Positions 30,747 through 59,487 of a stretch of DNA of 64,000 nucleotides are shown here, piece after piece. Location of the stretch: positions 18,308,871 through 18,372,870 of the forward strand of contig NC_092676.1 in NCBI RefSeq assembly GCF_964355755.1. Reading direction: 5' to 3'. The notes beneath the pieces were generated by a model, which did no database searches, was not told where the DNA came from, and saw only the letters and a program-made list of their open reading frames with translations. Source of the stretch: Antedon mediterranea. Its lineage: Eukaryota > Animalia > Echinodermata. Both the position numbers and the translations under genes were made by a program. Position 1 is the first letter of the stretch, and each line of letters starts with the position of its first letter.

Positions 30747-33700
30747 TCAAACTCGTATATTATTGGTATCTTGCTGTAGTTTTATCCATGGAACCCAGTT
30801 GCCACCATGTAACTTGGGGTCTGCATTTAAATCTGCATCTACATTGGCAGCAGGTACAACGGTAGGAAGAATTTCATCAAGCCTTGACTTCAGTTCTGAG
30901 ACAATTTCTGTAAAAGTAAAGATTTCAAAAGCTGTTAATATAATAGCAAAAAATGCATTTTGTATAAAACCTGCACAAAGCAAACATTTATATGATTGTT
31001 GAGTTGGCATTCTGCCTTGTTTAGAGGTAATCTTCTAAATAGTAGGAAGCTTTTGATGTTGATGACCTAGGAACTAGGATAGGTCATTTGGAAGTGCTTC
31101 CTCTACATCTTTTTGATCCAGTCAATGACACAATACTGTAGGCTAGGCCATAGGTTTTAGGTCATGACCTAGGAACTAGGATAGGTCATTTGGAAGTGCT
31201 TCCTCTACGTCTTTTTGATCCAGTCAATGACAATAGGTCATTTAGAAGTGCTTCCTCTACATCTTTTTGATCCAGTCAATGACACAATAGGCTAGGCAAT
31301 AGGTTTTAGGTCATGACCTAGGAACTAGATAGGTCATTTGGAAGTGCTTCGACCTCTACATCTTTTTGATCCAGTCAATGACACAATAGACTAGGCCATA
31401 GGTTTTAGGTCATGACCTAAGAACTAGATAGGTCATTTGGAAGTGCTTCCTCTACATCTTTTTGATCCAGTCAATGACACAATAGGCTAGGCCATAGGTT
31501 GTAGGTCATGACCTAGGAACTAGATAGGTCATTTAGAAGTGCTTCCTCTACATCTTTTTGATCCAGTCAATGACACAATAGGCTAGGTCATAGGTTGTAG
31601 GTCATGACCTAGGAACTAGATAGGTCATTTGGAAGTGCCTCTTCTAATTGTTAGGCCTAAATTAAATGCTTATAAATGTAAATTTGAAACCTTTACTTTC
31701 TATGCCAATATAAAATACTGCAATATTCCTTCTTTTTTATGTATTGCTAATGATGTTGTTCCTGATCGATCATGTCCATCATGTAATGATTCTTACCTGG
31801 ATGGCTATCTGCAATGTTGTAATATTCACATGGGTCATGTTTAACATTGAAGAGGCACGGTGCTTTAAATGGCTGGCAGTTTGTTGTAGCATTATCAGGC
31901 TTAGGAAGACATTCAACTCGTGTAGCTCTTTGATCTGGGTTTACTGAAATGTTGGTACAGTATACAAACTATTTGATAAACTGATTTGAGACAGCTTTGG
32001 AATTCCAGTTCATTGAATCAATTGTACTATTAAGATGCTTATACCGATATTGGACAGAGATTGGTTCCCTGCCATAGATTATTCATCATATTTAATAAGC
32101 ATAATACCAGCCCTAGAGCAATAACACACCCCACCCTCCAAATATATATTAAACCCTTCCCAGTACAATTTCTTGTCAAGTTGATACCACAGGGTATGTG
32201 TTTGGATGCGGTACAAACTCTCTTACTTATTCAAACAATCTTTATTTCATAAAAAAGTTCTGAATCTGAAAAGTACCTACCTTTTTGTTTGCCTTTTGTT
32301 GGATACCAATCATTCCAATCATTAGGCTTAAAGCTATTGACAACCAACTTGTAATCACCTTTTCTCAGTGCAGAGTAGTTCCCAACAGTGTCAATATTAT
32401 GCAGGATCTCCACCCGAGGGCTTTGTTTTCCACTAAAAATTTATTCAATAAATAAGAAATTGCTAAAGCTACTGACACTGACAGTAAATTTAATAAAAAT
32501 ATACTATACCTACCAATGACGCACCAACAGTTTCAAAAGTTTATTGGTAATTCAAATTTAACACTCAATTCCCTATCAATCACAACACCTGTGACACATT
32601 TAGACCCTATTTTATCCTCAGACACATTCATCCATATACATTTTGTTACCCGATGTGGCCGACTAGAGTGTCATAGGTCAGTTGTGAAATGAGTTGTGAA
32701 TGTTATCCGATTCTACAATACAATCAGGAGCACTGTACTGATATTGGTAACTACTGTATTGTGATATGAGATTCCCACTCGCAAGAGAGTTGATCAATCA
32801 CGTAAGCAACAGTTTGGATGATCATAATTGTTTGAGATGCGCTTACGTCCTTGTGTTACACCCAAGTGAGGAACCAAACATTATCAGTGATTAACACTGC
32901 TGCCAATGAGATTGGGTGTCATGACAACCCGAGCACAGTATTGAATGGTTTTAAGCTCTGTCTACACCATCAAAAATTATTTGACAAACAAATGTGATGT
33001 GTCCATATATGTATATGATGTCATATCACTACCATATTTGGGCATATCACTACCAAATTTGGGCTTATCACTACCAAATTTGGGCACATTGTTTTTTTCA
33101 AACTAGTTTGACAGTTTACACTATACCTTGAAACTGTGTCCCACTGATTCATGCCATATATGTTCTTCAAGTTCCTGTCATCACCTCCTGCTAACTGGTA
33201 TATCGTTGGGAACCAATCACAAACATGTATCAATTCTTTTGATACTCTTCCTGGCTTTTTCAACAAAGGGCTATTGACCAAGCCAACCCCACGCACGCCC
33301 CCTTCCCATAAAGTGTGCTTGGAGCCCCGCAGTGGTTCATTACTGGCACAGTTTCCATCAAAACCATTTGCTGGCCCACCATTGTCGGTGGTGAAGATAA
33401 TTACAGAGTTTTCATAAAGACCAGTGGATTTTAAGGTTCTTGTTACGTTGCCAACGCCATCATCTAATGCAGACACCATAGCTAAAATGATTATAAAATG
33501 GAGAAAATATACTGGATAATAATTGATTTAAAGACTGTGTGAGTTTGAATTCTGTAATCAACCAAATGTAATAAATAAGAATCATAGGTCTAAATAACAA
33601 AACCATTCCTCAATGTATAAACACAGCCATACAGTCATTATGCTTCAATGGTTTCAGTAGTTTCAGTGTCACCAATGAACACTCACTGCATGGGGCAGTG

Positions 33701-36700
33701 TTCCACCTTTCAGAGAAGTTTATTGGGAATGCACACTTTTCATCAAAATACTCCTTCACCAGTAGTTCTGGTGGTAAATAAGTACTCTTGGATAAAGACA
33801 CATCTAAGATTTCAATGTACCAAGTTCATCTGTCGGAATAATATGGAGTTACTGGTCATCCCAGCCCTGTCTCCATCATTTCGACAGAAGAACGAGTGCT
33901 ATTTGGTGCCAGCAGTGGCTATGAGCACTCACTGCCCAAAGCCAGGGGCCCCAGAGCATGAGAAGCCTCAATGCAACTACCTAGTGTTGGCGGGCCCCTC
34001 AGGAGTGCAAAACCAGGGGCCTTTGCCACATGCGCTATGCCACTGGGTGGCAGCTCAACATGAAAGGACCCTTAGGGCAGTTGTGTATGTTTGTCAACTG
34101 CTCTTTGAGATGATTATTGAATAAATCAATCCATTATTTATCATGAAAATGAAATGGTAAACAGAGAATGGATCAATCCAGTAAAAAGTTTGAATTTATA
34201 GTTTATGTGAACCTACCTGCAAATATTTGTCTGTCGTCATCACCTATATCTGGAAATCTATCAATGTATTTTTGTGGAGCCTGTAATATCTGATCTGGGT
34301 TACCACTGTGGACAGCTTGGTAAGGTAGATATAGGAACAAAGGCTGTGAGGTGCATTGATGGTAGTATGAAAGAGGAAAATGAGATTATAGAGATTCAAT
34401 CAGGAGGAACAAAGGCTGTGAGGTGCATAATGAGATTAGAGATTCAATCAGGGAGGAAAAAAGGCTGTGAGGTGCATTGATGGTAGTATGAAAGAGGAGC
34501 ATGACCTTAAAGAGTTTGATTACCAGAATGTCATTCCTTTTGGAAGCTCATGCCAGCCAAAGCACTGCAAACCAAGAGGTGTCTACTGGGCTACCCTTTT
34601 TAAAATGATTTTATGTGATGGCCGTTTATGAAAATGGAATAAAAATATTCAGTACAAGAAATTTCATCAGGATGTTTAAGCAGAGAGCAATCCTGAATTG
34701 CGTCTGAACAATTGAACATTTTATGGGAATAACAAAAAAAGCAACCAAACACTTCTGCTTTGTTTACACTATCAAACTAGTGTGATGTGCCCAAATATAG
34801 TAGTGGTATGACATCATTGTATCCATTTTATATGGGCACATCACATTTCTTGTCACATAAGTTTGATAGTGTAGACAGAGCTTTACTGACCTTTGTTGAA
34901 TTGACATGATCCCTAATAATGTTTTCCGCTTGCTCTGTAAATATTTCAGTAGAATATTGGCCGAACACAGGCTTGTAAACTCTGCCATTTTTATGAAAAT
35001 CAAACCCCCATAGCTGTTAAAATTCAACAATATTTATTATTATAAATTCTTGCACATGTAAACATAAAAACAAGTTAGAATTACTGTTGTACCATCCTCA
35101 GTCAGGGGCGGATTCAATGTATGATCAAATTAATAATAATAATAATAATAAACAGTATTTATATAGCGCCTAATGGATCACTGACCCCTCTAGGTGCTTT
35201 ACATAGGACCTTAACAAATTAGAATATGACAATCTGTCCGATTCTTCGCAAAACTCTGTATTGCTAAGCAATTTCGCAAGTTATAATGCAAAAGATAGGA
35301 CATGAAATTTAAGTGTAATAGATAAACTGAATGCTAGAAAAGATTTTGGTCAACCAGCTCATTGCAGATTATGTAGAAAAAAAGTTTAAAATCAGAAGAA
35401 TCATACCAATTTGTTGTCGGCATGAAGATCTGAAGTGTGCTCAAAATAATCCTCCTTTCCAAGGTAGTATCCGAAGGCTGTATCAAACCCTCGTTGCATT
35501 GGCAAGTACTCCTCTGCAAAATGACCTAGGTGCCACTACGAGAACGAGAATAAAGATGTTATATCATCTGCCAATTTTGTTTACACTGATGACAACATGG
35601 TTTCTGATAAGCTGCTTTAGAAAGGTTCAAGGAACTAGATGGAGATTTGGGTTGAATGTGGCGTTAATTTGTCATTTCAGATAAAATATCAGATAAAGAG
35701 AATTGCATTTATATTATGTGTTATGAACAATCAAGAAAGATTACTACTACTAGCATAACAACCAAAACTTCAAGCCCTTCTCAACTTAGAAACCCTCGTT
35801 GCATTAAACTTTACTAGTAGCAGTACAAACCTTTAAACAATATTATTGTACAAACTTATTTTGGTTAAACCATCCGACACATTTTACGTACAAAGTGGGT
35901 TAAAGTTTATGCATCAGCCAATTGGTTTACCTTTCCCACTATGTGGTTTGAATACCCAAGTGTGCGCAAGTGCTCTGCAATGGTGGTCTCATTAGGTCTC
36001 AGACCATAGGGATTTGCTCCTCCAATTGTTCCATGAAACAGGCCTGGAAAAAATTGTTCAACATATGATAGTATTATTCACCTTACTACTCTACCTATCT
36101 GGTGTTATTATGGGGTATGGTTATTATTACCCTATAATAATTGTGTAACTCACTAAACAGAAAATATTTTTCGCCTATAATAAAATCGTAATATATATTA
36201 TTATTACAGCATAATTTTTATACAGTGTACAAACGCATATTAAGACCAAGCCTTCAGGAGAATGGAACCAATGAGGTTGGGCTTGGGGCATGTGCTTTCC
36301 TCTTTTTAAAGCTCAGGTACAGGCATGAATTTTAAAAATAATATTTGGTTAATTGTACATAAATCAAATATTTGTAGCAAAAATCAAGACAAAAAAACAT
36401 GAATTTCCCTTAATATGTTCAAATACTAAATTTTGCAAAATGCTTCCATAAACACCAGAAAGACTTTTTTCAGTAGTTAGGTAGTTAACCTAATGTAATA
36501 ACATGTCTGGTGACTCCCTAGAAGGTGAAAAAAGATGGTGGATATACGGTGGATAATTTTTGCTATAGCATGAAAATAAAAATCTGAAGTTGAATAAAAA
36601 TACTAGAAATGTATATATTCAAGTTATATTACCTATATTTAGTCATCTGATTACATTTTTTACCACAATGTTTATTATTCATAGCTTTTTAAAATGCCTC

Positions 36701-37999
36701 TCTATTTACAAAATTTGTGTACAAAAGAATAGAGATTTTACTGTGTAATTTGAACTGATAAGAAAGTGCTTATTTTCAACAAGCTCGTGTAACAGCACAA
36801 ATAAAATCCCAAAAATTATGAAACATAGGGGAAACTAGATCGATAATTATTGGAATGTATGATCAATAGAAATTTTTATGAACTACTTTTTAGTATCTAT
36901 CAATACAATGTTTAGCACTCCCCTGTGAAAAATCCCTGATCATCCCCTGGACTAGCTTTCTGTATTACCATGTTTTATTTTGGTACGAATTGTGAATGTT
37001 TTCATCATTGTTCTCAACACACACTTACCGGTGTGGATTGGATGCCGACCCGTCAGAAGAGCGCTACGAGTTGGTGTGCAGATGTGCTGTACATAGTAGT
37101 TGGACAGGATGACACCTTCATACGCCAACTGGTCAATATTTGGTGTTGGAATCTGACCAGAACCATGGAAACTAACATCATTCCATCCCTAGATAAAAGG
37201 TTTAAAAACTTTCAAATTTTTTTTTTATTTTGAACAAATGAATTGAAATGTGATCTTTTGTTTCATGTAAATCATTTCTCCTTTTACTTATCTATTTGAA
37301 AAATATACTGTATTATTTTTCCAACACCTATTACCATTTACCAATTATCGACAGAAAAGAAGAAAAATTTGTAATTTCTGTGCGCTATACATTTATTTAT
37401 TTATAACACTAGGTGTGGATGCTGCAGGAAATTTCACTTGGATTAGAATCTTTAGTAAAAAATAGATTGGAATACCAATACTTACTAAATCATCGGCCAC
37501 AATTAGAATAATGTGAGGTTGTTTGTTATTTGCTTTTACAGAACCTAAAATTGTAAACAATAACAAACATAATAACATCTTCAGCGACTGAAAAAGAAAA
37601 GCATATATCTTGGAATTAGTTGATACAATACACACGCACTTCTTTCTATGTTAAAAATATGGTTTTGTAATTGAACACCATGGAGTTGAATAAGGCTTCC
37701 TTTCGGTTTGGACTTAATTTTAATATTTTTAATATTTAGTATCATGCAACCTGTAGTGTAGCCTAGTGTTGCAAGGATTAATATGTTATACAATGCTAAA
37801 TTGGTGCGTGACATACATTCCACTCTATCACACACAGCTAGCTCACAACTAACAACAAAGTAGGAGGGGTACAAAAACAAATAAATCAATGCATCATGCT
37901 ACAAACAACTAAAGAGCTCCACAGACAGAACATCCACTTCGTTTTGTAAAAATCTATTTCTGTGACACTTATGAAAACAGTTAATTGATTACTTACCAT
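30747..37999 (-). CDS. Arylsulfatase B-like sulfatase (ARSB/I/J group), paralogue 1, about 523 aa
   Basis: Exons: 37999-37997 (ATG then gtaagt; alternative ATG at 37578), 37587-37486, 37188-37029, 36043-35931, 35535-35407, 35013-34891, 34343-34217, 33481-33127, 32432-32281, 31943-31797, 30907-30747; 1572 nt in frame with no stops. Signal peptide, [28 protein letters not shown] (formylglycine motif CxPxR), [39 protein letters not shown]. Confidence 0.92.
31064..31640. repeat. Intronic tandem repeat, unit about 100 bp, 5-6 copies
   Basis: Repeated ATGACCTAGGAACTAGATAGGTCATTTGGAAGTGCTTCCTCTACATCTTTTTGATCCAGTCAATGACACAATAGGCTAGGCCATAGGTTTTAGGTC. Confidence 0.95.
33913..34045. mobile_element. hAT-type MITE
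   Basis: Termini CAGTGGC...GCCACTG, flanked by GGTGCCAG / GGTGGCAG (8 bp TSD with 1 mismatch). Same family as 51037-51131. Confidence 0.7.
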
Positions 38000-38547: not shown

Positions 38548-41500
38548 ACTGTGTTTTACAATAACCAATTTGGTTAGAGTAAAACACAATGATAAAGAAT
38601 AGGAAACATTTAATAATATGATAAATGACATTTACATAGCAATTTATCACTGTGTTTTACTATAACCAATTTGGTTAGAGTAAAACACAATGATAAAGAA
38701 TAGGAAACGTTTAATAATATGATAAATGTCATTACATAGCAATTTATCACTGTGTTTTACTATAACTAATTTGGTTAGAGTAAAACACAATGATATAGAA
38801 TAGGAAACATTTAATAATATGATAAATGACATTTACATAGCAATTTAGCACTGTGTTTTACTATAACCAATTTGGTTACAGTAAAACACAATGATAAAGA
38901 ATAGGAAACATTTAATAATATGATATATGACATTCACATAGCAATTTAGCACTGTGTTTTACTATAACCAATTTGGTTAAAGTAAAACACAATGATAAAG
39001 AATAGGAAACATTTAATAATATGATAAATGACATTTACATAGCAATTTAGCACTGTGTTTTACTATAACCAATTTGGTTAAAGTAAAGCAGAATGATAAA
39101 GAATAGGAATTTAATAATATGATATATGACATTTACATAGCAATTTAGCACTGTGTTTTACTATAACCAATTTGGTTAGAGTAAAACACAATGATAAAGA
39201 ATAGGAAACATTTAATAATAATGATTATTTACATAGCAATTTAGCACTGTGTTTTACTATAACCAATTTGGTTATAGTAAAACACAATGATATAGAATAG
39301 GAAACATTTAATAATATGATAAATGACATTTACATAGCAATTTATCACTGTGTTTTACTATAACCAATTTGGTTATGGTAAAGCACAATGATATAGAATA
39401 GGAAACATTTAATAATATTATGATAAATGACATTTACATAGCAATTTAGCACTGTGTTTTACTATAACCAATTTGGTTATGGTAAAGCACAATGATATAG
39501 AATAGGAAACATTCAATAATATGATAAATGACATTTACATAGCAATTTAGCACTGTGTTTTACTATAACCAATTTGGTTAGAGTAAAACATAATGATAAA
39601 GAATAGAAAACATTTAATAATTTGATAAATGACATTCACATAGCAATTTAGCACTGTGTTTTACTATAACCAATTTGGTTATGGTAAAGCACAATGATAT
39701 AGAATAGGAAACATTTAATAATAATGATTATTTACATAGCAATTTAGCACTGTGTTTTACTATAACCAATTTGATTATGGTAAAACACAATGATAAAGAA
39801 TAGGAAACATTTAATAATAATGATTATTTACATAGCAATTTAGCACAATGTTTTACTATAACCAATTTGGTTAGAGTAAAACACAATGATAAAGAATAGG
39901 AAACATTTAATAATAATGATTATTTACATAGCAATTTAGCACAATGTTTTACTATAACCAATTTGATTAGAGTAAAACACAATGATATAGAATAGGAACA
40001 TTTAATAACATGATAAATGACATTCACATAGAAATTTAGCACTGTGTTTTACTATAACCAATTTGATTAGAGTAAAGCACAATGATAAAGAATAGGAAAC
40101 ATTTAATAATATGATAAATGACATTTACATAGCAATTTAGCACTGTGTTTTACTATAACCAATTTGATTAGAGTAAAGCACAATGATAAAGAATAGGAAA
40201 CATTTAATAATATGATAAATGACATTTACATAGCAATTTAGCACTGTGTTTTACTATAAACAATTTGGTTAAAGTAAAGCAGAATGATAAAGAATAGGAA
40301 TTTAATAATATGATAAATGACATTTACATAGCAATTTAGCACTGTGTTTTACTATAACCAATTTGGTTAGAGTAAAACACAATGATAAAGAATAGGAAAC
40401 ATTTAATAATATGATATATGACATTCACATAGCAATTTAGCATTGTGTTTTACTATAACCAATTTGGTTAGAGTAAAACACAATGATATAGAATAGGAAA
40501 CATTTAATAATTTGATAAATGACATTTACATAGCAATTTAGCACTGTGTTTTACTATAACCAATTTGGTTAAAGTAAAACACAATGATAAAGAATAGGAA
40601 ACATTTAATAATATGATAAATGACATTTACATAGCAATTTAGCACTGTGTTTTACTATAACCAATTTGGTTAAAGTAAAGCAGAATGATAAAGAATAGGA
40701 ATTTAATAATATGATATATGACATTTACATAGCAATTTAGCACTGTGTTTTGCTATAACCAATTTGGTTAGAGTAAAACACAATGATAAAGAATAGGAAA
40801 CATTTAATAATAATGATTATTTACATAGCAATTTAGCACTGTGTTTTACTATAACCAATTTGGTTATAGTAAAACACAATGATATAGAATAGGAAACATT
40901 TAATAATATGATAAATGACATTTACATAGCAATGTATCACTGTGTTTTACTATAACCAATTTGGTTATGGTAAAGCACAATGATATAGAATAGGAAACAT
41001 TTAATAATATGATAAATGACATTTACATAGCAATTTAGCACTGTGTTTTACTATAACCAATTTGGTTATGGTAAAGCACAATGATATAGAATAGGAAACA
41101 TTCAATAATATGATAAATGACTTACATAGCAATTTAGCACTGTGTTTTACTATAAACAATTTGGTTAAAGTAAAACACAATGATAAAGAATATGAAACAT
41201 TTAATAATTTGATAAATGACATTCACATAGCAATTTAGCACTGTGTTTTACTATAACCAATTTGGTTATGGTAAAGCACAATGATATAGAATAGGAAACA
41301 TTTAATAGTAGTTATGATAAATGACATTTACATAGCAATTTAGCACTGTGTTTTACTATAACCAATTTGGTTATGGTAAAGCACAATGATATAGAATAGG
41401 AAACATTTAATAATAATGATTATTTACATAGCAATTTAGCACTGTGTTTTACTATAACCAATTTGGTTATGGTAAAGCACAATGATATAGAATAGGAAAC

Positions 41501-42450
41501 ATTTAATAATATGATAAATGACTTACATAGCAATTTAGCACTGTGTTTTACTATAAACAATTTGGTTAAAGTAAAACACAATGATATAGAATATGAAACA
41601 TTTAATAATTTGATAAATGACATTCACATAGCAATTTAGCACTGTGTTTTACTATAACCAATTTGGTTATGGTAAAGCACAATGATATAGAATAGGAAAC
41701 ATTTAATAATAGTTATGATAAATGACATTTACATAGCAATTTAGCACTGTGTTTTACTATAACCAATTTGGTTATGGTAAAGCACAATGATATAGAATAG
41801 GAAACATTTAATAATAATGATTATTTACATAGCAATTTAGCACTGTGTTTTACTATAACCAATTTGATTATGGTAAAACACAATGATAAAGAATAGGAAA
41901 CATTTAATAATAATGATTATTTACATAGCAATTTAGCACAATGTTTTACTATAACCAATTTGGTTAGAGTAAAACACAATGATAAAGAATAGGAAACATT
42001 TAATAATAATGATTATTTACATAGCAATTTAGCACAATGTTTTACTATAACCAATTTGATTAGAGTAAAACACAATGATATAGAATAGGAACATTTAATA
42101 ACATGATAAATGACATTCACATAGAAATTTAGCACTGTGTTTTACTATAACCAATTTGATTAGAGTAAAGCACAATGATAAAGAATAGGAAACATTTAAT
42201 AATATGATAAATGACATTTACATAGTAATTTATCACTGTGTTTTACTATAACCAATTTGGTTAGAGTAAAACATTTTAACTATGATAAATGATATTTAGC
42301 ACTGTGCTGGATACAGTAAAACACAAATAAAGAATAGGAAACATATAATAATATGATACATTTACATACAAATTTAGTATTGTGTTTTACTATAGCCAAT
42401 TTGGTTACAGTAAAACACAATGATAATGAAACATTTATTATATGATGTTA
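38548..42450 (+). repeat. Satellite array, 101 bp monomer, about 38 copies (left arm)
   Basis: Monomer ACTGTGTTTTACTATAACCAATTTGGTTAGAGTAAAACACAATGATAAAGAATAGGAAACATTTAATAATATGATAAATGACATTTACATAGCAATTTAGC; period measured from 38851 to 38952. Confidence 0.97.
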
Positions 42451-46189: not shown

Positions 46190-48520
46190 AAATTGGTATA
46201 GTAAAACACAGTGCTAGCAATGTATCATATTATTAAATGTTTCCTATTCTTTATCATTGTGTTTTACTCTAACCAAATTGGTTATACAGTAGTAAAACAC
46301 AGTGCTAAATTGCTATGTAAATGTAATTTATTATATTATTAAATGTTTCCTATTCTATATCATTGTGTTTTACTCTAACCAAATTGGTTATAGTAAAACA
46401 CAGTGCTAAATTGCTATGTAAATGTAATTTATCATATTATTAAATGTTTCTTATTCTTTATCATTGTGTTTTACTATAACCAAATTGGTTATAGTAAAAC
46501 ACAGTGCTAAATTGCTATGTAAATGTAATTTATTATATTATTAAATGTTTCCTATTCTATATCATTGTGTTTTACTTTAACCAAATTGGTTATAGTAAAA
46601 CACAGTGCTAAATTGCTATGTAAATGTTATATATCATATTATTAAATGTTTCCTATTCTATATCATTCTGCTTTACTTTAACCAAATTGGTTATAGTAAA
46701 ACACAGTGCTAAATTGCTATGTAAATGTAATTTATTATATTATTAAATATTTCCTATTCTTTATCATTGTGTTTTACTCTAACCAAATTGGTTATAGTAA
46801 AACACAGTGCTAAATTGCTATGTAAATGTCATTTATCATATTATTAAATGTTTCCTATTCTTTATCATTGTGTTTTACTATAACCAAATTGGTTATAGTA
46901 AAACACAGTGCTAAATTGCTATGTAAATGTCATTTATCATATTATTAAATTCCTATTCTTTATCATTCTGCTTTACTTTAATCAAATTGGTATAGTAAAA
47001 CACAGTGCTAAATTGCTATGTAAATGTCATTTATCATGTTATTAAATGTTTCCTATTCTATATCATTGTGTTTTACTCTAATCAAATTGGTATAGTAAAA
47101 CACAGTGCTAAATTGCTATGTGAATGTCATTTATCATATTTTTAAATGTTTCCTATTCTTTATCATTGTGTTTAACTCTAACCAAATTGGTTATAGTAAA
47201 ACACAGTGCTAAATTGCTATGTAAATGTTATATATCATATTATTAAATTCCTATTCTTTATCATTGTGTTTTACTCTAACCAAATTGGTTATAGTAAAAC
47301 ACAGTGCTAAATTGCTATGTAAATGTTATATATCATATTATTAAATTCCTATTCTATATAATTGTGTTTTACTTTAACCAAATTGGTTATAGTAAAACAC
47401 AGTGCTAAATTGCTATGTAAATGTTATATATCATATTATTAAATGTTTCCTATTCTTTATCATTGTGTTTTACTCTAACCAAATTGGTTATAGTAAAACA
47501 CAGTGCTAAATTGCTATGTAAATGTCATTTATCATGTTATTAAATGTTTCTTATTCTTTATCATTGTGTTTTACTCTAACCAAATTGGTTATAGTAAAAC
47601 ACAGTGCTAAATTGCTATGTAAATGTAATTTATCATATTATTAAATGTTTCCTATTCTATATCATTGTGCTTTACCATAACCAAATTGGTATAGTAAAAC
47701 ACAGTGCTAAATTGCTATGTGAATGTCATTTATCATATTTTTAAATGTTTCCTATTCTTTATCATTGTGTTTAACTCTAACCAAATTGGTTATAGTAAAA
47801 CACAGTGCTAAATTGCTATGTAAATGTTATATATCATATTATTAAATTCCTATTCTTTATCATTGTGTTTTACTCTAACCAAATTGGTTATACAGTAGTA
47901 AAACACAGTGCTAAATTGCTATGTGAATGTCATTTATCAAATTATTAAATGTTTTCTATTCTTTATCATTATTTTTTACTCTAACCAAATTGGTTATAGT
48001 AAAACACAGTGCTAAATTGCTATGTAAATGTTATATATCATATTATTAAATTCCTATTCTATATCATTGTGTTTTACTTTAACCAAATTGGTTATAGTAA
48101 AACACAGTGCTAAATTGCTATGTAAATGTTATATATCATATTATTAAATGTTTCCTATTCTTTATCATTGTGTTTTACTCTAACCAAATTGGTTATAGTA
48201 AAACACAGTGCTAAATTGCTATGTAAATGTCATTTATCATGTTATTAAATGTTTCTTATTCTTTATCATTGTGTTTTACTCTAACCAAATTGGTTATAGT
48301 AAAACACAGTGCTAAATTGCTATGTAAATGTAATTTATCATATTATTAAATGTTTCCTATTCTTTATCATTGTGTTTTACTCTAACCAAATTGGTTATAA
48401 TTTATTTAATTTCATTTCAAAAGACATTTACCTAAATTGCTATTTAAATGTCATTTATCAAATTATTAAATGTTTCCTATTATTTATCTGGTTATATAGT
48501 AAAACACTGTGCTAAATTGC
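46190..48520 (-). repeat. Satellite array, same 101 bp monomer in opposite orientation, about 23 copies (right arm)
   Basis: GTGCTAAATTGCTATGTAAATGTCATTTATCATATTATTAAATGTTTCCTATTCTTTATCATTG is the reverse complement of the left-arm monomer. Confidence 0.97.
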
Positions 48521-49390
48521 TATTGTATAAGGACGAGTTCCGAGAAGATGTATTCAAAGCTACAACCAATCAGAACAGTGTTAATCAATATAATCCATGG
48601 CTACAGCCAATCAGAAACGTCCAAATCGCAATAACCCCTAGGCTAATAGAAATTATTGGTCCGAGTAGCCTTTTCAACCAGACGTTGCGAGGTTTAAAAA
48701 GTAAAACATGATTTACTCGCCAGTTTGGTATAGTTTATATACCTGAAGTAGATGAGTGCCTGGTTCACGAAAATCCTCAAGCAAAACCATTGTTTAGCCA
48801 TTTTAATGTAATCATGTTATTTTAGTTTAATATATGTAAGTACTTATCTTAAATGTTGAATTGAATCAGTAAACTTGTTTCTTGAGAAATTAATTTATCG
48901 ACAAATACTGTGTTGTTTGTCTACTACTACAGTTACACAACACAACACACACATAACAGTCCAATGTCGGTTATTAATTTATAATACTGTATTATGTTAT
49001 GTCTAGGGGTGCCTTAATAAGTTGAGAGAGTTAGGTAGCCGAGAAGAATATGATTTTTTTTTATAGATATTTGAGACACAAACCGTCAGAACATGGATGG
49101 TGCAACAATGATCAGACTGGTTGACCAGCCTACTAGAAACCATTTAGCTCGGCCTATTGTATTGTTAGTTATACTAATTCCACTTTCACCAAGACGTTTA
49201 CCTCCCCATGCCTAAATCAGCAGGTTCTCGCCTTGTCTGAAATTTTCAATTTTCACCACCCATCCCAATTCCTTGCACAGATCTTCATATTTTATATAAA
49301 TAATTATATTTAAAGCATCTTTGTCTCATCTGTTTTTAACCTCTCGCTACGGCCTTGTCTAAAGTCTTTTTTTGTTCATTAATACAGTAG

Positions 49391-52300
49391 ATGAAAATGT
49401 TGACCACCAGTGAAGGACGCTTATTCTCAGTATTTCTAACTGTTTTTTGTGTGTGGATTGTCACTGCCCAGAAACAACCAAATATTATATTTATTGTTGC
49501 TGATGACTTGGTAAAGTGCAAAATATTCTTTAAAAGCATGTCTAGTCAAGGGTCGGATGCAAGAATTTTGTATATATATAATTTAATGTTAGCTATAATT
49601 TAAAAAGGGAAAACTTGCACCTCTAGTGCTACCCAGCCACTGAATCCGTCTCTGGTAGTTATGTAATATACATGCCCACCCATCCTGCCCCACCTCCTCC
49701 CTCCAAAGTAAAAAAATTAAAAAAAATTATTTATCAAATTTTCCTGTAAAATGAATGTATTTTATTTAATGTTCAGGTACATTCAACAACATTATACACA
49801 TTTTAAAACCCTTTCTACTGATATTCCAATTTTATTTAAAACATACTATTGTCCCTTGTTTATTAAATAGCACTAAAGGCTTTATGTTATCAACATTGAA
49901 CACATCCACTGTCATATTTTATTCAAAACATACTATTGTCTCTTGTTTATTAAATAGCACTAAAGGCTTTATGTTATCAACATTGAACACATCCACTGTC
50001 ATATTTTTTTCTTTTTCACATAAATGAGTATCAAATTTGTCACTTTAGGGATGGAATGATGTGAGTTTCCATGGCTCAGAACAGATTCCAACACCAAATA
50101 TTGATAAGTTAGCATACGAAGGAGTTATTCTCTTCAATTACTATGTGCAGCCAATTTGTACCCCAACACGTAGTGCAATAATGACAGGCAGACATCCTAT
50201 ACATACAGGTAATTTATAATACAAAATGATTTATTGTGGTAAGAAAATTCTAATCTTAGGAATAATTTCCTTTTTAAGTTCTGTCTACACTATCTGTGAT
50301 GTGCCCATGGATATGAAGATGTCATATCACTACCATGTTTGGGCATATCACTACCATATCACTACTCTTTTTGTCAAACTAGTTTGAAAGTGAGACAATT
50401 TAGACATGGTTTTTTTTTTTAAATTAATTTAGGCATCAAATACCAAAACCGGCATCATACTAAACCATAATAATTGATTGTTTATTTTGTACAGTAAACA
50501 GTAATGATTGGTTTATTTTATTTGAGCTTTAAAAAAGTTTTTATATTGTACTAAAATAAATCCAAAAAGATTTTTTCAGAAAAAAAGGCCAATTCTTAGT
50601 AGCCGCAATGCAAAACACTACTTTTGTTAATATTTGTTCTGGTATTTGTAGTGTGGTATTTTAAGCGGAACCAGGTCCATTGATGATATTTATTTTATGG
50701 TAGTCTTATATCTTGACAGGATTGTATCATAACGTTATTATGGGTCAAGAGCCATTTGGCCTCAGACCAAATGAGACCACTGTTGCTCAGTATCTTCATG
50801 ACTTAAATTATTCCACAGTAATGATTGGAAAGGTGTGTTATTACTAATTAACTAAGTTGTGTTTAATTACCAAGTTTGAGGAAGTCTTTAGTCCTTTCAT
50901 TTATAACAATCATGATCTGCAACAACAGTTAAAAAGTTGATGTTTCTGCTAAGGTACTCAAGTGTTATTCTGTAGAATGTTAAGCATCAGTTTACATTCA
51001 ACTGGGTGAGGAGTGTTGGACATTGATCTTGAGATCCAGTGGCGTAACGCAGAGGCCCCTGGTTTAGGAACCCTAAGTGGCCCTCCAACTCTGGGTTTAG
51101 CCAGTGAGCGCTCATAGCCGTTACGCCACTGTTGAGATCATGAGTTTGAATGCTTGTCGCTTTGCTTGTATTATTGAGAAGCCCATAATTACAATACAAT
51201 ACAAAAATGTAATCTGTAAACTGACAGAGTGTTCTAGATGGCATATAATAAATAATGCAGATTCAAAATAAGCGGCCCTTCGAGTTGTTAATGAAGGCTT
51301 GGCTGACCATTCCAACATTATCGAGAACTTGTTTGAATATTGTGTTTGTATTTCGATTACGCTTCGAGCATTTTTCATCTTGGAAGAATAGCTTTTTCGT
51401 CATCTGATCCGATTGGAAGGTTTGGAAGAGGAATGGGGTTCTGCATCAGCAACATTTTTTGCATCACGACATAATTATTATACATGTTTAGAAACAATAT
51501 GAAATCTTACAAAATGTGTAGAAATAAATAAAAATAATAACTTCAGTTCATCAATAGTAGTCTGTTTTGACTTTACCCTTTGACCCGTAAAATTGTGCTT
51601 TTCAGGCTTATTTCATAGTGTAATAACGGCTGCCCAGCCAGATGGACTTAGGCCAAATGAGACCACTATCCCTGAACACTTACGCCAACTTGGTTATGAA
51701 AACCACATGGTTGGCAAGGTAGGTTTTTATAAAAAGATAATGTTTATTCCAATTAAAAAGTAAATTATAAAATATAATTACAACAAAAATAAATATGACA
51801 ATCACAAGCAGTCACCCTAATAAAAAGAAAGGATACATTATATACTGTACAGTATATCAAAAAATTGAATATATTGTAATGTTTTTGGCAGACGTCTGTC
51901 GCGAATGAATATTCATCACAGAAGCCTCGAACACAATACAAAAATTAAATACATTAAAAATAAATTCATTACTATAAATTATAATAGATATTCAATTATG
52001 TTCAATCGGGAAAAGACAAAAAGCTCAAACATGTATTTTTCTTTGAAAACTCAATAGACAGTACAACAATGACTTCATTAAGAAATACCTTTTAAGAGAA
52101 AAAAAAATGTACAGTATGATGTTCATGGAAAGTGCAAACTCTAATGCTCAAATGGACTCTTTTTGTATGTCAACAGTGGCATTTAGGTCATTTTGCCAAA
52201 GAATATCTCCCAATAAATCGAGGATTTGATTCAAGTTTTGGATATTACCTAGGAAAAGAGGACTATTGGGAACACACCTCCTCATTCAACTTCTCCAAGG

Positions 52301-55300
52301 TATAATATTGAGGGATTTGATTTGCAACAGCCGGTAACTAAAATATTCCTTGCATAAGTCAGCTGGGTTAAAAAACAAGACAAGCATCTGAAATAAAATT
52401 GTTTAAATTTGACAAACAAAATTCAAAACAAATTTGAGGAATATGACAGAAATTCCATATTATTTTAAGGAATTTGTATTCGTTTGAATGCCATTTACAT
52501 ATGTAAACTAGTCGCTATTTTTGCTGGTAGAAGAAAGATGTATAAATATCTTAATACTAGATGGCGTGTGAAGTGAATAATATTTGTTCACATAATTTAC
52601 ATATAATACTGAAACAGTTTGGCTGTCAGTGATATAATAGTAAATACTTGGCTTTTGCAAATCAACTTCTCTCTTGTGTTTTTAAATTTATGCATGACTG
52701 TTTCCTATATAATAATTATATTTTCCTTCCCTTTCTTTTAATTATTTTTTTCATTGGTTCATTTGTTTACCTTTTTCAATTATTTTATTGATTCATCATA
52801 TTAATTGTATAATTTTACCAGACATAAATTCTCCACCTGTGGGAGGTTAATACCTCATTTTTGCGATCACATAAAATTTACCAAACTACAGCTAGAGATT
52901 TGAATGTTTAATTCTATATTAGCATTTTTTATGATTATAGATATTTTTGTTTTGATGGAGAGGGATGTCTAATCTCTAAAAGTTGTCATCTTTTCCATAC
53001 TGCTTCTTTAGCTCTGTCTACACTATCAAACTTTATGTGACAAAAAAATGTGATATGTCATATCACTACCATATTTGGGCCATCACACTTTTTTTTGTCA
53101 AACTAGTTTAGTAGTGTAGAGACAGAGCTTTGATATAAACAGTTTTCTGCATGGTTTTTGTAAGTTCTAAATCAATACACAGCATGTATTTACCAGAGGT
53201 TTTAGTGCTGCTTCAAGTGCCTATCTTGGTTTTACCAGTTGGTGAAATAGATTTTTGAAGTCCAGAATAGAAAAGTGTATGATATCTAGTTGGCCAGTTT
53301 CTTCTAATGTACAGGATAATCCCTACTTTGTATCAAAGGTTTACTATAGTATTATTAGTTAAACTGTCTTTACTATAAGAAATGGAGACCCACTTGATAG
53401 TTTGATTTAGTTCGCTTTTGGGAATCCGGTCTCTCTCTATTGTTTGTTTTTTTTTGTTATAATTATGTGAGACGAAATAAATGAAATGAAATGAAATGTA
53501 ATATTGCACACATGACCAACAACTTAACATCTCATCTGGAGATAATGAATACTGCTGCAGCCTATTCATGAATTGTTTCAATTGTCTAAGTAGCATTGTA
53601 GTCTTCAATTATAATTTGTTGTATTGTTTATTTTTATAGCATGGTGTATTTTGATGTGAAGTATAGTATTTAGATGTGCGACACATAATGTGTGTGGTCG
53701 ATTCTTAATAAGGTACTTGTCTATTAATCCCAGTGTTCAAGGGTTACTTCTTGTCTATTAATCCCAGTGTTCAAGGGTTACTTCTTGTCAAATACCAGGA
53801 TTTTTGTTATACTGTATGGTTATGTTGAGTATCATGTATATTGCCACCTTTTAGTTTTTGAGACCTTAGCAGAACATCCTAATTTTATTTTGCTAAATTT
53901 AAATTGAAAAATGCATTTAGAATGACATGAAATGACTAAAGACTTCTAAAAATAATTTTAATAATATCACTATAAAATATTCATTGTATTAATATTTTAT
54001 GAACAATTTAATTTAATATTGCAGATATTGTCATTTTTTAACATTACACAGTAACTTAAACTTTTTAAAAATAATAGCCAGTTTAAAGCTTTAATTGATC
54101 CAAACATAAACTATTGCAAAACTATCCATTGATTTTATCATCAATCATTTGTCATGTTCAGTGGCATTTAGGATTCTTTGCCAAAGAGTACACGCCCACG
54201 TATCGTGGCTTTGACTACCATTTGGGCTACTACACGGGTAAAGAAGATTACTTTGTGCATACATCAAATGAACACATTGCAGGAGATAAAGTGAGTATGT
54301 TATGCTGTCAAAACCTGGTTATCCTCATAGTACAGTTGGCTCTGTACCTGAAGTATTCTAGGCTAAAATTGTGTTCTGTGGTCTTATGTTTCAAGCAATA
54401 TGGAGCTATATTGTGTATAGGGAGAGTTTGATATCAGTGCCATCTTGTCATCATGGAGGATAGACAAAATATGTAATATTCTAATTGTCTCTTCCTTTAA
54501 AGGATGTTAAGCTGTTGTTTCTGTGTATATAAATACATTATAAAAGAAATTGGTGTCTCATAGTGTATCGATAATGGTATTAGCAGAGGACTGATTTGAA
54601 TTCTCTTGGTTTTATTTTTATATTAACACTTTATGATATACATGGTTATTTGGTTCACTAATATAAAATGAGTTGGATGTATTCTAATTCACTGCCATTA
54701 TAGGTGCTCTTGTCTGCCTGCAGAGGCCCTAATTGTTGTTGATGGATTTAACTTTAAGTCTAAATTGTTTGTATGTATGTAATCACAGATAACAACTTTA
54801 ATATTACCTTTATTTATACTGTATGAGTTCAATACTGTTACGGTCAAATTTATAGCAAATCCCTGACAAATACTGTATATAACACTCTGTTCTATACATT
54901 ACTGTACTTTCTGAATTTAGTTTTGTCTGTTTATGCTTACTCATGTTTTTTAGTTCTTCTTCTATACATATTTTATTGTATTGCTTTTTTTATTTGATCG
55001 TTTTTATTGTGCATGCCGCATTCTAAATATAACAAACAATTTAGTAACACTGTTGATGTTAATTTGCCAGCATGCATTCTGGGGATATGACTTCCATAAG
55101 AATGGTGAAGTGTACAAACCTGAATTTGGACAGTATTCTACTGAGCTCTACGCAGATGCAGCTATAAATATTTTGAAGAACCATGACACTTCAAAGGTAG
55201 AGTTTGAACACATTTCAAAGTGTTTGCTAATTAAATTAATAAATAACCAAATTATCTTGTAAAGCTTTCTAAAAAAAAGTAAAGATGAAGTCTCTCTATT

Positions 55301-58262
55301 TTGCCATTACTATCCATTGTCCAGGTTGTGAGAATATAGCATCTTCTAATACAATATGCTCTATTTTAAAGAAGCATCGGCAAAAACAGTATCTCTATGT
55401 ACAACAGTAATGATTAAAATTAGAAAGACTATAGTTTTAATTTTTGAAAACTCTTTTTAGCCACTGTTCTTGTATTTGCCATTCCAAGCTGTTCATAGTG
55501 CCAATGAAGATGATCCATTACAGGCTCCTCAGAAGTATATCGATAGATTCCCATACATACAAAATAAGCAAAGAAAAGTATATGCTGGTAAGTCAAGTAG
55601 CAATTAAGCTGACTTGTAATACAGAGATGGTGTTACATGATGCCCCATAATACATAAGAAAACTTTATTATCTCCAACAATCCGAAGAAATTACAAGCAC
55701 TTGCCATCAATCATACTGAAAGAAAATGACCCAATTTTTTATGGAAGTTGAGAATGTGCTGTTTTATTTTTGCCTAAGTAAATACTCACAGAAGATATTT
55801 TTTTTTCAATAGCAATGGTTTCGGCACTTGATGATGCTGTTGGAAATGTCACTGCCAGTTTAAAAGAGACCGGACTCTACAATAATTCAGTAATCTTTTT
55901 CACGACTGACAACGGCGGCCCCGTTTGTGGGTTCGACTACAACTGTGCAAGTAACTTCCCTCTACGTGGCGTCAAAGCAACTTTGTGGGAGGGAGGTGTT
56001 CGCGGTGTTGGTTTGGTTAATAGTCCTTTCTTAAAGAAACCTGGTAGAATTTCTGAAGACCTTGTGCATGTCTGTGACTGGTTGCCAACGATTTATCACT
56101 TGGCTGGTGGAGATACAAGTAAACTAAAGAACTTGGATGGATACAACCAGTGGGAAACTATATCAAGGTTTGTACACAAACACATCAGCTCAACACAGAC
56201 CTTACAAACAACCCGTGATGGCCAAATAAGTCTGGTATTCCAGCAGGTCAGGATTTCAGAATGAATGGCCGATATGCATGTGTGGAACCTTGGGAGATTT
56301 TTATGTTCAGGGCCAGCTGAAACTCTAGAAACCTTTGACCTATATTTTCAGTTTCATTTTTTATTTTCAATATAAACAAGTGTCATGAATATAAGCAAAA
56401 ATGGAAGGATGACCAAAAAAGAGCAAAGTCTATAGTGGCAAATTGTCTGAAACAACAATATACTTTATGTCTGAAGTATCAGTTGCTTGGCAAACAGTAC
56501 ACACTCACAGTATCTGAAAGTCCTTTTGTTTTGCAAATAATCTACAGTATGTTATGTTGTTTAAATACTACTTTTCTACTTGTTACTACTGCATCATCAC
56601 TTATCTTTACATGCAGAAACTACAATATTTTTATACAGTATCTTGGATATTGGAACAATTTTATTTATGTTCATATATTTATATTCATGTTTCATTTACT
56701 AAATTAAAATACTGTAACAAAACGTACATTTTGTTACTTATTTATTCAATTTTGGGTACCTCTTTGCTAAATTGAACAATCTTTTCTGATATTTGTGATA
56801 ATTTGATGACTTTTTAAATTTTAAATTGATGAATGTGTGTGTTTATATAGTGGTGTGACAAGCCCAAGAAAAGAGGTCATTCACAATATTGATACAGTTG
56901 GCAACTTCTCAGCCATCAGGATGGGAGACTATAAGCTTGTTGTCAATAGCAACTACAATGGATCATGGGATGGCTGGTATCCAACTAAAGACGAGGATGA
57001 AGGTACAGTATCTTATTTTTTATTTTTCTTATTCATTTTTTTAAAATTTATTTATTAATTCGGTGGGGCTTCTAAAGAGACAATGAAGCTCTATAGCTCG
57101 TAGAAGTCCCAGCTTAAAATTTACAACTAAAATAATATCAATGATGTTTCTGGACGGTCATTGTAAGTCTGTGTCCACTTACTGGCATATATTCATAGCA
57201 GATATCTACCTGTGTGTGTTTGTACTTTATACCATCTTTTCCTAATTACTTGTAAATAGTTCTTGTTCATCTTTGTAATTAATTATTAAAAATAAAATAT
57301 TCTGCTGTGTGTTTTCTCATATTATTGAATTTTCTGATTGGAATATGTACCTTAGTGAATGTTGACATTTCCTCTTTCAAACTAATTTTTTTCAGTCAGA
57401 ATAGTAATAATACAGTAATTAAATTTTCTTTCCGCCAGACTTTGTAATACCCGTAAATGTAAACCCGCAAGCAGCTGTAGTGCACTGTCCACCAAAGCCA
57501 CCAGATGTAGAGACAAACTGTCAGCCATTCAAAGCACCATGTTTGTTCAATATTAGAAATGATGCTTGTGAATATATCAACATTGCTGCGCAACATCCAG
57601 GTAGGCAAAAGAATACAATTATTTGTGATTTTGATACCATTAAAGTTTAAAATGTCAAACGATTTATGTGATTTTTCCAAATGATGTCTGATTTTCCTTG
57701 CTGGTGCCATATTTGTTTCAGTAGTGACAGCTTGGAGATTGTCGATTATATTTTGTCTGCAAGCCAAATCAGAGTTGAAACACATTTAACATAGAAGTTT
57801 TGTTTAAAAAACCTATTTTGTTTTTCATTAAAAAGGTGATCTTTTTAAGATTTTAGCCTAATTATTTGTTTAAAGTTTGGAACTTTAGTTTGAAGTGACT
57901 GTAAGAAATCTGAATTGTAAAAACAAAAATTGTAATCACATTACTTTTGGTAACATAATAATAATGATCTTTTTTAGAAAAAAATTATTTTAATATAATA
58001 TAAAAAAAATTGATTTTGATTTTCCCAAGTCTGATTTTCCTTGCTGGTGCCATGTTTGTTTCAATAACAGCTTCAAGATTGTAGATACAATATATTTTGT
58101 CTTTTTGTAGACATTGTTTCCAAACTGCAAGCCAGGATAGCTGAACTTCTACCAACAGTGGTACCAGCAGCTAACAAGCCTGAAGATGTCAATGCTGATC
58201 CCAGATTACATGGAGGAAACTGGGTTCCTTGGATAAATCTAACACAATTTAACGAAGTGTAA
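49391..58262 (+). CDS. Arylsulfatase B-like sulfatase (ARSB/I/J group), paralogue 2, 529-531 aa, with duplicated exons 3 and 4
   Basis: Exons: 49391-49510, 50049-50208, [50720-50832 or 51606-51718], [52177-52299 or 54162-54290], 55071-55196, 55461-55587, 55813-56167, 56851-57002, 57439-57600, 58111-58262. Signal peptide, [62 protein letters not shown]. Intron positions and phases match paralogue 1. Confidence 0.93.
50720..50832 (+). CDS. Sulfatase paralogue 2 alternative exon 3a
   Basis: ttgacag|...|gtgtgt; 113 nt; [38 protein letters not shown]. Confidence 0.85.
51037..51131. mobile_element. hAT-type MITE, 95 bp, between exons 3a and 3b
   Basis: 13 bp perfect TIR CAGTGGCGTAACG/CGTTACGCCACTG with an exact 8 bp TSD TTGAGATC (51029-51036 and 51132-51139). 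Confidence 0.88.
51606..51718 (+). CDS. Sulfatase paralogue 2 alternative exon 3b
   Basis: ttttcag|...|gtaggt; 113 nt; [38 protein letters not shown]. Confidence 0.85.
52177..52299 (+). CDS. Sulfatase paralogue 2 alternative exon 4a
   Basis: caacag|...|gtataa; 123 nt; [41 protein letters not shown]. Confidence 0.85.
54162..54290 (+). CDS. Sulfatase paralogue 2 alternative exon 4b
   Basis: gttcag|...|gtgagt; 129 nt; [43 protein letters not shown]. Confidence 0.85.
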
Positions 58263-59487
58263 ATTTTGGAGGTTTTTTTTTCTTTTCATTTTAGCATTTC
58301 CTTGATAAATAATTAATACAGTACTACAATTACCTCAATAATTAGTGAAATAAAAACAAAATTCTAATCTAATTTTTAAAATGTAGTATTACATATACAC
58401 AGAAACAAAAAGGAAAATACAGTTTTAGTAGTAATAAAATAAGAAACATTTTTAAATGAATGAGATTTAAAATAATTATAATTTTATGGGTTTCTAATGG
58501 GTGCAACGTTTAATAAATATGCTGATGCTGATTTGATAACGTTGTGATCATCGGCTGCCGAAAGCTCTGTCTGCACTATAAAACTAGTATGATGTGTCCA
58601 AATATGGTAGTGATATGACATTATCATGTCTATATATGGGCACATCACATATACTTTGATAGTGTAAACAGAGCTTTAGTCAATATGACATGTCAAGTAC
58701 ACTTTATGATACTGTGGCATTGTCTCTTTCTCTGTGCCGGTATGGGGGACAGGTGTATCTTTGATTATTTCTCTTGTGGAGTCTGCTTGAATAGTGGAAT
58801 AAAAAGCTCCGGTTACAAGATAAGAACAGAATTGGAAAGTACATAAATTTTCCTTTCTACAATAGGGTTACTTTTTAAAAATTGTTTTTTAAAATTCATT
58901 TATTGTTCATTTAAATTATAGTTACCATGATTATAAAATCAACGTATAAATTGCAATATTAAACCATGTAATAGAGTTAGAATACTTGGTTACTAAACAC
59001 AATATACCATGCTAATGTTAATAGTTCTTTCGTCAACTTCCTTTAAACGATACTAGGCTACCTATATCATTCTAAACGGACAAAATACATCTTTTGATTT
59101 CGGCCAAGTGTCATGTATTTAGGTATTCTATGCACCAGCTTGCCATCCGTTGCATGCAACAGTTCCTTGTATATTGTACACTACAATCGGACAAAAAGAT
59201 CTCCAGCTAATCTCCAACAACTCATTTGCATATTTTTGAATTTATTTATAGAAATGTACAATTTAATCTTACATTATTACTGGACATAATATATATCTAT
59301 TTTTCTACTGTAGAAGAAGGGTTTTTCTACAAGATTTGTATTCATCATTTAATGTTCAATAATTTTTAATTATGATTTTTTTTTTGTCAACAATAAAATC
59401 GATTGAAAAAAAGAAATTTAAGTAATTTATCGTCAGTGATTACTTCATTGATGCGTAGTGGCCTAACAATAAGAACCACATCGTCTT

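Follow-up and report, generated by a model that had tools for sequence, protein, structure and literature searches.

How does a gene that carries two copies of each of two neighboring exons decide which copies to join, and what does the choice do to its protein? The question is raised by an arylsulfatase gene, here gene A, of the crinoid Antedon mediterranea, which lies in a stretch of 64,000 nucleotides (nt) that we call the window (contig NC_092676.1 of RefSeq assembly GCF_964355755.1, positions 18,308,871 to 18,372,870 of the forward strand; coordinates below count from its first letter). Between constitutive exons 2 and 5, the copies follow one another in the order 3a, 3b, 4a, 4b. Our analysis suggests, with a probability of roughly 0.65, that they form nested pairs of mutually exclusive exons used as either 3a+4b (outer pair) or 3b+4a (inner pair), that a predicted RNA duplex likely couples both choices, and that the result is two enzymes with predicted differences in the pocket. 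The layout of the gene is as follows.

49391..58262, + strand: gene A, ARSB/I/J-like S1 sulfatase, 10 coding exon positions
49391-49510 and 50049-50208, + strand: constitutive exons 1 and 2
50720..50832, + strand: exon 3a, outer pair, 113 nt, residues 95-131 including catalytic Lys131
51606..51718, + strand: exon 3b, inner pair, 113 nt, ends in GK like 3a
52177..52299, + strand: exon 4a, inner pair, 123 nt, starts with Trp132-His133 (WHLG)
54162..54290, + strand: exon 4b, outer pair, 129 nt, starts with WHLG
55071-55196, 55461-55587 and 55813-56167, + strand: constitutive exons 5, 6 and 7
56851-57002, 57439-57600 and 58111-58262, + strand: constitutive exons 8, 9 and 10

The original prediction, made from the letters of the DNA, had described four intact exons at these positions, and their coordinates, AG/GT ends and open frames were all confirmed. 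The copies share their phases and nearly their lengths (113/113 and 123/129 nt); 3a and 3b agree at 19 of 37 whole codons (20/38 with the split Gly codon), and 4a and 4b at 25 of the first 36. A tblastn search of the window found no further copy of exon 3 or 4 except in a minus-strand paralog, which has a single copy of each. Exons 3a, 3b together with 4a, and 4b each lie within unbroken contigs of three DNA-type runs from one sample, which is possibly the assembly's own; no listed piece of those contigs spans the intervening repeats. Joining exons 1-2-3b-4a-5 to 10 reproduces stored protein P0001 (arylsulfatase J-like isoform X2, 529 residues) letter for letter, and 1-2-3a-4b-5 to 10 likewise reproduces P0122 (isoform X1, 531 residues). 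Among 14 exon combinations translated, these two models alone matched a stored protein. Each isoform carries seven N-glycosylation sequons, one of them private to it (Asn123 in 3a, Asn169 in 4a); the Asn123 sequon is missing in the crinoid Anneissia.

Reading frame explains part of the exclusivity. A transcript with both copies of exon 3 shifts frame and meets a stop at residue 136, as had been argued from the sequence; the same argument fails for exon 4, since double exon 4 and exon-4 skipping stay in frame, as do the mixed forms 3a+4a and 3b+4b. Only double exon 3 breaks the frame, so that frame alone cannot enforce exclusivity at exon 4 and is ruled out as its cause. Steric exclusion by a too-short intron, or by sites other than GT-AG, is ruled out as well: the introns among the duplicated exons measure 773, 458 and 1862 nt and are all GT-AG, with AG-free zones of 43-71 nt.

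Which combinations are used is answered in the first place by annotation. In the RefSeq models of Antedon, all four members of the protein cluster were read: isoforms X1, X3 and X4 carry 3a+4b and X2 carries 3b+4a. Both members of the corresponding cluster of Anneissia japonica repeat the pattern (X1, 3a+4b; X2, 3b+4a), and the two species belong to separate families of Comatulida. Mixed forms would be 96-97% identical to the known ones and would thus land within the same 90% clusters. Were the two positions independent cassettes, all four enzymes would be made and the annotation would be missing the mixed ones. The open frames of 3a+4a and 3b+4b would permit this, the corresponding blocks combine freely in the annotation of clam and amphioxus genes, and contigs lose rare variants. 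Yet the same annotation pipeline gives the clam Mercenaria each of the four combinations along with double exon 4 and skipping, and amphioxus most of them, so mixed forms do enter its models elsewhere; and although a single short-read junction decides the combination, the same two of the four are annotated in both crinoids. Taken with the RNA contigs and with a predicted duplex that surrounds exactly the inner pair, both described below, this makes free combination in the crinoid gene improbable in our judgment.

RNA evidence comes from one run (X1), treated as RNA in view of contigs that skip GT-AG introns exactly. Its contigs were examined over 51378-53000, a stretch that holds 3b and 4a of the four copies. 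Seven contigs map there: one spans the junctions from exon 2 to 3b and from 3b to 4a (GT..AG), one joins 4a to 5, two cover introns, one covers 4a, and two are short pieces at the start of the stretch. None of them contains a mixed joint (3a to 4a, 3b to 4b or 4a to 4b). The contig of this run that covers exons 5-10 starts at base 1 of exon 5, its letter 923 being the start of exon 10 and exons 5-9 summing to 922. Exon 4a and the intron share the ending AG; a contig break at this base therefore requires a second upstream exon that does not end in G, and exon 4b ends in A, which fits such a second entry into exon 5. The contig ends thus imply, indirectly, the joint of 4b to 5. Usage is so far documented by the run for the inner copies alone, and for the outer copies by the annotated proteins of two species plus one contig end. 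Mutually exclusive use of both pairs, as first proposed, thus finds support, most of it from annotation for the outer copies, and the "up to four enzymes" proposed with it find none: of the four in-frame combinations, two are annotated, the same two in either species. Elsewhere, no short protein fragment matched the exon 3-4 region at >68% identity among the best 120 of 143, and a metagenome scan returned 45 loci at 24-67% identity, none from a crinoid gene.

What could tie the choice at exon 3 to that at exon 4 is suggested by complementary arms in the introns that flank the inner pair (energies in kcal/mol throughout).

50873..50901, + strand: arm S1a, 41 nt past the 3a donor; pairs with Da, -28.5 kcal/mol
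50932..50963, + strand: arm S1b; pairs with Db, -31.4 kcal/mol, nested within S1a:Da
53856..53887, + strand: arm Db, candidate docking element in the intron that separates 4a from 4b; partner of S1b or, more weakly, S2
53926..53954, + strand: arm Da, 207 nt upstream of the 4b acceptor; pairs with S1a
54363..54387, + strand: S2, a weak possible rival partner of Db; 4b would be looped out by Db:S2

The predicted nested helices link the intron after 3a with the intron before 4b and enclose exactly 3b and 4a; positions 50881-50900 and 53927-53946 are complementary at 19 of 20 bases. At -57.3 kcal/mol, the nested pair ranks first among 55 intron pairs of gene A and was reached by none of 500 dinucleotide shuffles (mean, -33.7; best, -46.2), and the best single helix was reached by 3/500. 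The arms have no other match of >12 nt in the window besides one 18-nt AT-rich match in the spacer, the spacers between them pair poorly, and they sit in unbroken single contigs of the DNA runs. With the duplex, 40 + 207 bases separate the 3a donor from the 4b acceptor; without it, 3329. The candidate alternative helix Db:S2, with S2 lying 73 nt past 4b, has an energy of -22.6 kcal/mol and was reached by 9/300 shuffles, the pair having been picked after looking; it is present in the local minimum free energy structure, yet with a mean pairing probability of 0.10. Pairing to U1 is stronger at the 3b donor (-9.8) than at the 3a donor (-5.7), which fits 3b as the default choice. A search of 49000-58700 against Rfam gave no matches.

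Together, these elements would make a two-state switch. With the duplex formed, 3b and 4a would be held within a 2.9-kb loop and about 250 unpaired bases would separate the 3a donor from the 4b acceptor, giving 2-3a-4b-5. With the duplex absent, the stronger 3b donor and the short intron between 3b and 4a would favor 2-3b-4a-5, and the freed docking arm may, as a weaker element of the scheme, pair downstream of 4b and hide it. A product containing both 3a and 3b would be removed through its frameshift, presumably by decay. Two further pairings were noted, one of 50765-50794 with 52164-52190 (exon 3a with the 4a acceptor, -23.8) and one of 50815-50841 with 54879-54905 (3a donor with intron 4b, -25.1); neither stands out from the energies that chance gives the best helix between two introns (mean, -22.0; standard deviation, 2.3). 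Pairings of intron 2 with intron 4a, and those within gene B, were dismissed as functional elements, for they derive from copies of a short repeat.

Several points weigh against this reading. In the RNA run, over the stretch examined, the junctions of exon 2 to 3a and of 3a to 4b are not directly seen, and the contig with 3b extends 240 letters upstream, through exon 2 and without a break, leaving no branch from exon 2 to 3a in that assembly. The RNA comes from one run of one study, is subject to the same loss of rare variants from contigs, and is possibly among the annotation's own input. The duplex is predicted from the introns of one species. Strength of pairing by itself is no proof, given that inverted copies of the short repeat reach energies of -49.2 (gene A) and -71.7 (gene B). 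Among non-repeat pairings, we found none that loops out or silences 3a; removing the arms from local folding barely alters splice-site accessibility; the weak Db:S2 competitor, found after looking, is suggestive only; and the mapping of the pocket rests on homology to solved relatives.

Some of these points would suit a different cause of the coupling, namely cell-type splicing factors or an alternative 5' end, with the duplex incidental or a mere helper. RefSeq isoforms X3 and X4 combine 3a+4b with different 5' ends, the RNA run retains no branch from exon 2 to 3a, the duplex leaves the skipping of 3a in the inner form unexplained, and the excerpts of PMC11471635 describe exclusive exons linked to first exons in TrpA1. 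A full-length X1 with exons 1-2-3a-4b is nevertheless annotated in both crinoids, and the position and strength of the duplex suit coupling and beat 500 shuffles; we regard control by factors or the 5' end as unlikely, and the duplex-coupled switch as the better account of the locus.

The age and conservation of the four exons bear on a further doubt, that the outer exons are either a relic put to use only seldom or a product of annotation, and that the gene makes essentially one enzyme, 3b+4a. Between Antedon and Anneissia, identity is 34/37 for 3a, 33/37 for 3b, 38/41 for 4a and 36 of the first 36 for 4b (33-36/36 for the exon 4 copies), within the range of the constitutive exons (35/42 to 54/54, exon 1 apart), whereas copies within one gene agree at 19-20/37 (exon 3) and 25/36 (exon 4). 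Cross-species identity lies far above between-copy identity, which bears out the suggestion of purifying selection on all four exons. The proportions of nonsynonymous and synonymous differences (pN/pS) between copies, 0.15-0.37 versus 0.63-0.89, are near saturation and were not used for dating. In favor of a relic, direct sightings are limited to inner junctions, and the paralog works with inner-type exons alone. The outer exons are conserved between the families like constitutive ones, however, three of the four Antedon models carry them, and the contig ends point to another upstream partner of exon 5; a one-enzyme gene is thus highly improbable, and we retain the two-enzyme switch. The paralog is laid out as follows.

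30750..37560 (approximate coding span), - strand: gene B, head-to-head paralog of gene A; protein P0006 maps here at 96-100% on most exons
36043-35931, - strand: single exon 3 of gene B, inner type
35535-35407, - strand: single exon 4 of gene B, inner type

Exon 3 of gene B matches 3b at 27/37 positions versus 20/37 for 3a, and its exon 4 matches 4a at 29/36 versus 25/36 for 4b. In 153 protein pairs with the same core identity as A and B (pairs not independent of one another), exons 3 and 4 average 0.77 and 0.82. The inner pair stands at 0.73 and 0.81 against gene B, as core identity predicts; the outer pair matches at 45/73, a value reached by 1 of the 153 pairs. In the simplest reading, the cassette likely predates the duplication that gave A and B, and gene B lost the outer pair, although faster evolution of the outer exons could also enter into this age argument. 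Two other origins were rejected: a transfer of the inner pair out of gene B later than the duplication, with the outer exons too distant from B and the inner ones only as close as core identity predicts, and tandem duplication of a 3+4 block, which would yield the order 3-4-3-4.

Exon swaps of this kind extend well beyond crinoids. We know of no duplicated exons in the human ARSB, ARSI and ARSJ genes, and the original prediction knew of no such arrangement in the ARSB family. The breadth sample consisted of 30 look-ups of clusters picked for their many members and rests on annotated proteins. In 16 species of four phyla, an exon-3 or exon-4 block with exact boundaries is swapped between annotated isoforms: among deuterostomes, the two crinoids, Diadema antillarum, Branchiostoma lanceolatum (three versions of each block) and B. 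floridae; among bivalves, Mercenaria, Ruditapes, Dreissena, four Mytilus, Pecten and Ylistrum; and among spiders, Stegodyphus dumicola and Trichonephila clavata. The arrangement is thus not peculiar to one gene, the same blocks being swapped in many invertebrate ARSB-like genes. Within 17 of 22 hand-picked isoform pairs, every difference falls inside the exon-3 and exon-4 blocks. Clam and amphioxus models share the block boundaries and the most variable positions with the crinoid gene but, unlike it, combine the blocks freely. No swap was seen among the listed proteins of Strongylocentrotus, Lytechinus, Apostichopus, Ptychodera, Nematostella, Pocillopora, Orbicella, Crassostrea, Mizuhopecten, Pomacea, Octopus, Haliotis, Patella and Spodoptera, for which annotation may be the explanation.

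Because they may mix paralogs, variants of Amphiura (start of exon 3, and exon 5) and Stylophora were not counted. Two other pairs differ in one short segment only, Nematostella P0085/P0216 at residues 262-302 (14 changes) and Amphiura P0127/P0129 at residues 166-205 (5 changes), each possibly a duplicated exon or a paralog mixture. In exon trees, weak at 37 and 36 columns, copies group by lineage (support 96/88 for spider exon 3 and 92/80 for the crinoids), which favors repeated duplication or homogenization over one ancient cassette. Judged by these trees, the duplications of exons 3 and 4 apparently arose repeatedly.

In both forms the enzyme has the marks of an S1 (formylglycine) sulfatase. 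Pfam Sulfatase (PF00884) is recognized in each at 187-195 bits (cut-off, 25), and both retain D38, D39, C77, R81, K131, H133, H226/228, D289/291 and K311/313, that is, the CxPxR motif and the metal and sulfate ligands. This catalytic set is common to the two isoforms, which agrees with the earlier proposal of a constant catalytic core with swapped flanking segments; the isoforms differ at 33 aligned positions, all within residues 96-171. The predicted folds are complete and ARSB-like, with predicted local distance difference test (pLDDT) scores of 93.7 and 93.3. The closest solved structure is human ARSB (PDB 1FSU; 41% identity; phmmer E-value, 1.5e-118; Foldseek template modeling score, 0.83 for the outer form). 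The pocket residues D53, D54, C91, P93, R95, K145, H147, H242, D300 and K318 of ARSB, as listed in the excerpted part of PMC9399948, all have counterparts here, and Thr replaces S94. According to the portion of bioRxiv 2025.10.08.680342 that we used, ARSB and ARSI act on N-acetylgalactosamine (GalNAc)-4-sulfate; by analogy with these two enzymes, a GalNAc glycan with 4-sulfate groups, e.g., chondroitin or dermatan sulfate, is the most likely substrate.

The swap is predicted to act on the part of the pocket that holds the leaving group. Among exon-3 copy pairs, position 98 differs in 10 of 11 and position 101 in 11 of 11, and position 136, directly past WHLG, differs in all six exon-4 pairs, the pairs being partly related in both cases; in scallops, the differences between copies are confined to positions 98 and 101. 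The exon-3 loop aligns with the loop of PsS1_19B that carries F103, a residue lining the -1 sugar subsite (PMC6923384, in excerpt). In GALNS, the excerpted text of PMC5926073 gives Tyr108 and Gln111 as active-site or docking contacts; they lie 32 and 29 residues before the catalytic Lys, compared with 33 and 30 residues from positions 98 and 101 to Lys131 (counted, not aligned). Leaving-group contacts, rather than catalytic residues, set specificity in S1 sulfatases, as far as the excerpts of PMC9096561 go. The two isoforms might accordingly be tuned to different leaving groups, and comparison with these relatives makes a changed glycan preference between them likely.

The surroundings of genes A and B yielded further observations. 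Between the two genes lie two arrays of a 101-nt satellite in opposite orientation, at 38548-42273 (37 copies) and 46223-48399 (22 copies), and a 47-nt noncoding stretch, 89% identical, lies upstream of both paralogs (48698-48744, + strand; 38191-38145, - strand). The opposed arrays and the shared upstream sequence suggest that the A/B pair arose from an inverted duplication, and retention of the 47-nt stretch while the introns no longer align makes it a candidate for a conserved element of the promoter. A short repeat, present in many copies, partly palindromic and resembling a miniature inverted-repeat transposable element, occurs at 50270-50392, 53003-53131, 58564-58678, 34757-34885 and 32951-33115, in introns and the 3' flank of both genes; strong intron pairings that stem from it are probably incidental. 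Other tandem arrays lie at 31233-31638 (96-nt unit, last intron of gene B) and 6787-7053 (18-nt unit).

Much of what the locus displays has precedents: the two isoforms are in automatic annotation, and RNA-pairing control of exclusive exons, partly linked choices and active-site exon swaps are already known. In literature on arylsulfatase splicing, exon duplication and coupled clusters, taken from a collection short of subscription papers and judged by title and abstract, we did not find a nested or coupled sulfatase exon swap, although supplementary exon catalogues may list one. We tentatively advance as new and undescribed that one conserved RNA bridge turns two adjacent exclusive clusters into a binary switch by which two walls of the pocket change together, and that ARSB-like genes across four phyla repeatedly duplicated these exons to make glycan-specific isoenzymes. 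If true, two 30-nt arms would provide a compact case of one RNA structure locking two exclusive choices. The swapped exons keep the catalytic residues and vary a few positions that map to leaving-group contacts, and the family as a whole would thus offer nature's own test of what sets sulfatase specificity. Comparing two isoforms that match everywhere else would then reveal residues for glycan preference in the family of ARSB, the enzyme of mucopolysaccharidosis VI.

The closest known systems are Drosophila srp exon 4 and the Dscam clusters, where exclusive splicing proceeds by competing or bidirectional RNA pairing (PMC4691838 and PMC6071210, in excerpt), and human ATE1 exons 7a/7b, whose exclusive splicing is controlled by RNA pairing (PMC7797038, likewise). 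As far as these excerpts describe them, gene A shares with all three its tandemly duplicated exons and, as a prediction, arms in the introns whose pairing would loop out exons and draw splice sites together; an element lying between two copies, with possible partners to both sides, is a candidate further parallel. In srp, Dscam and ATE1, each structure picks one exon in one cluster; the duplex predicted for gene A, in contrast, spans two clusters, removes one exon of each and would thereby couple two choices. Linked exclusive choices, in partial form, are on record for Drosophila TrpA1 in the available part of PMC11471635, and TrpA1 resembles gene A in making fewer isoforms than free combination allows. 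TrpA1 ties a first exon to the distant exon 10, whereas in gene A the two clusters are internal, adjacent and nested, and are joined through a single junction.

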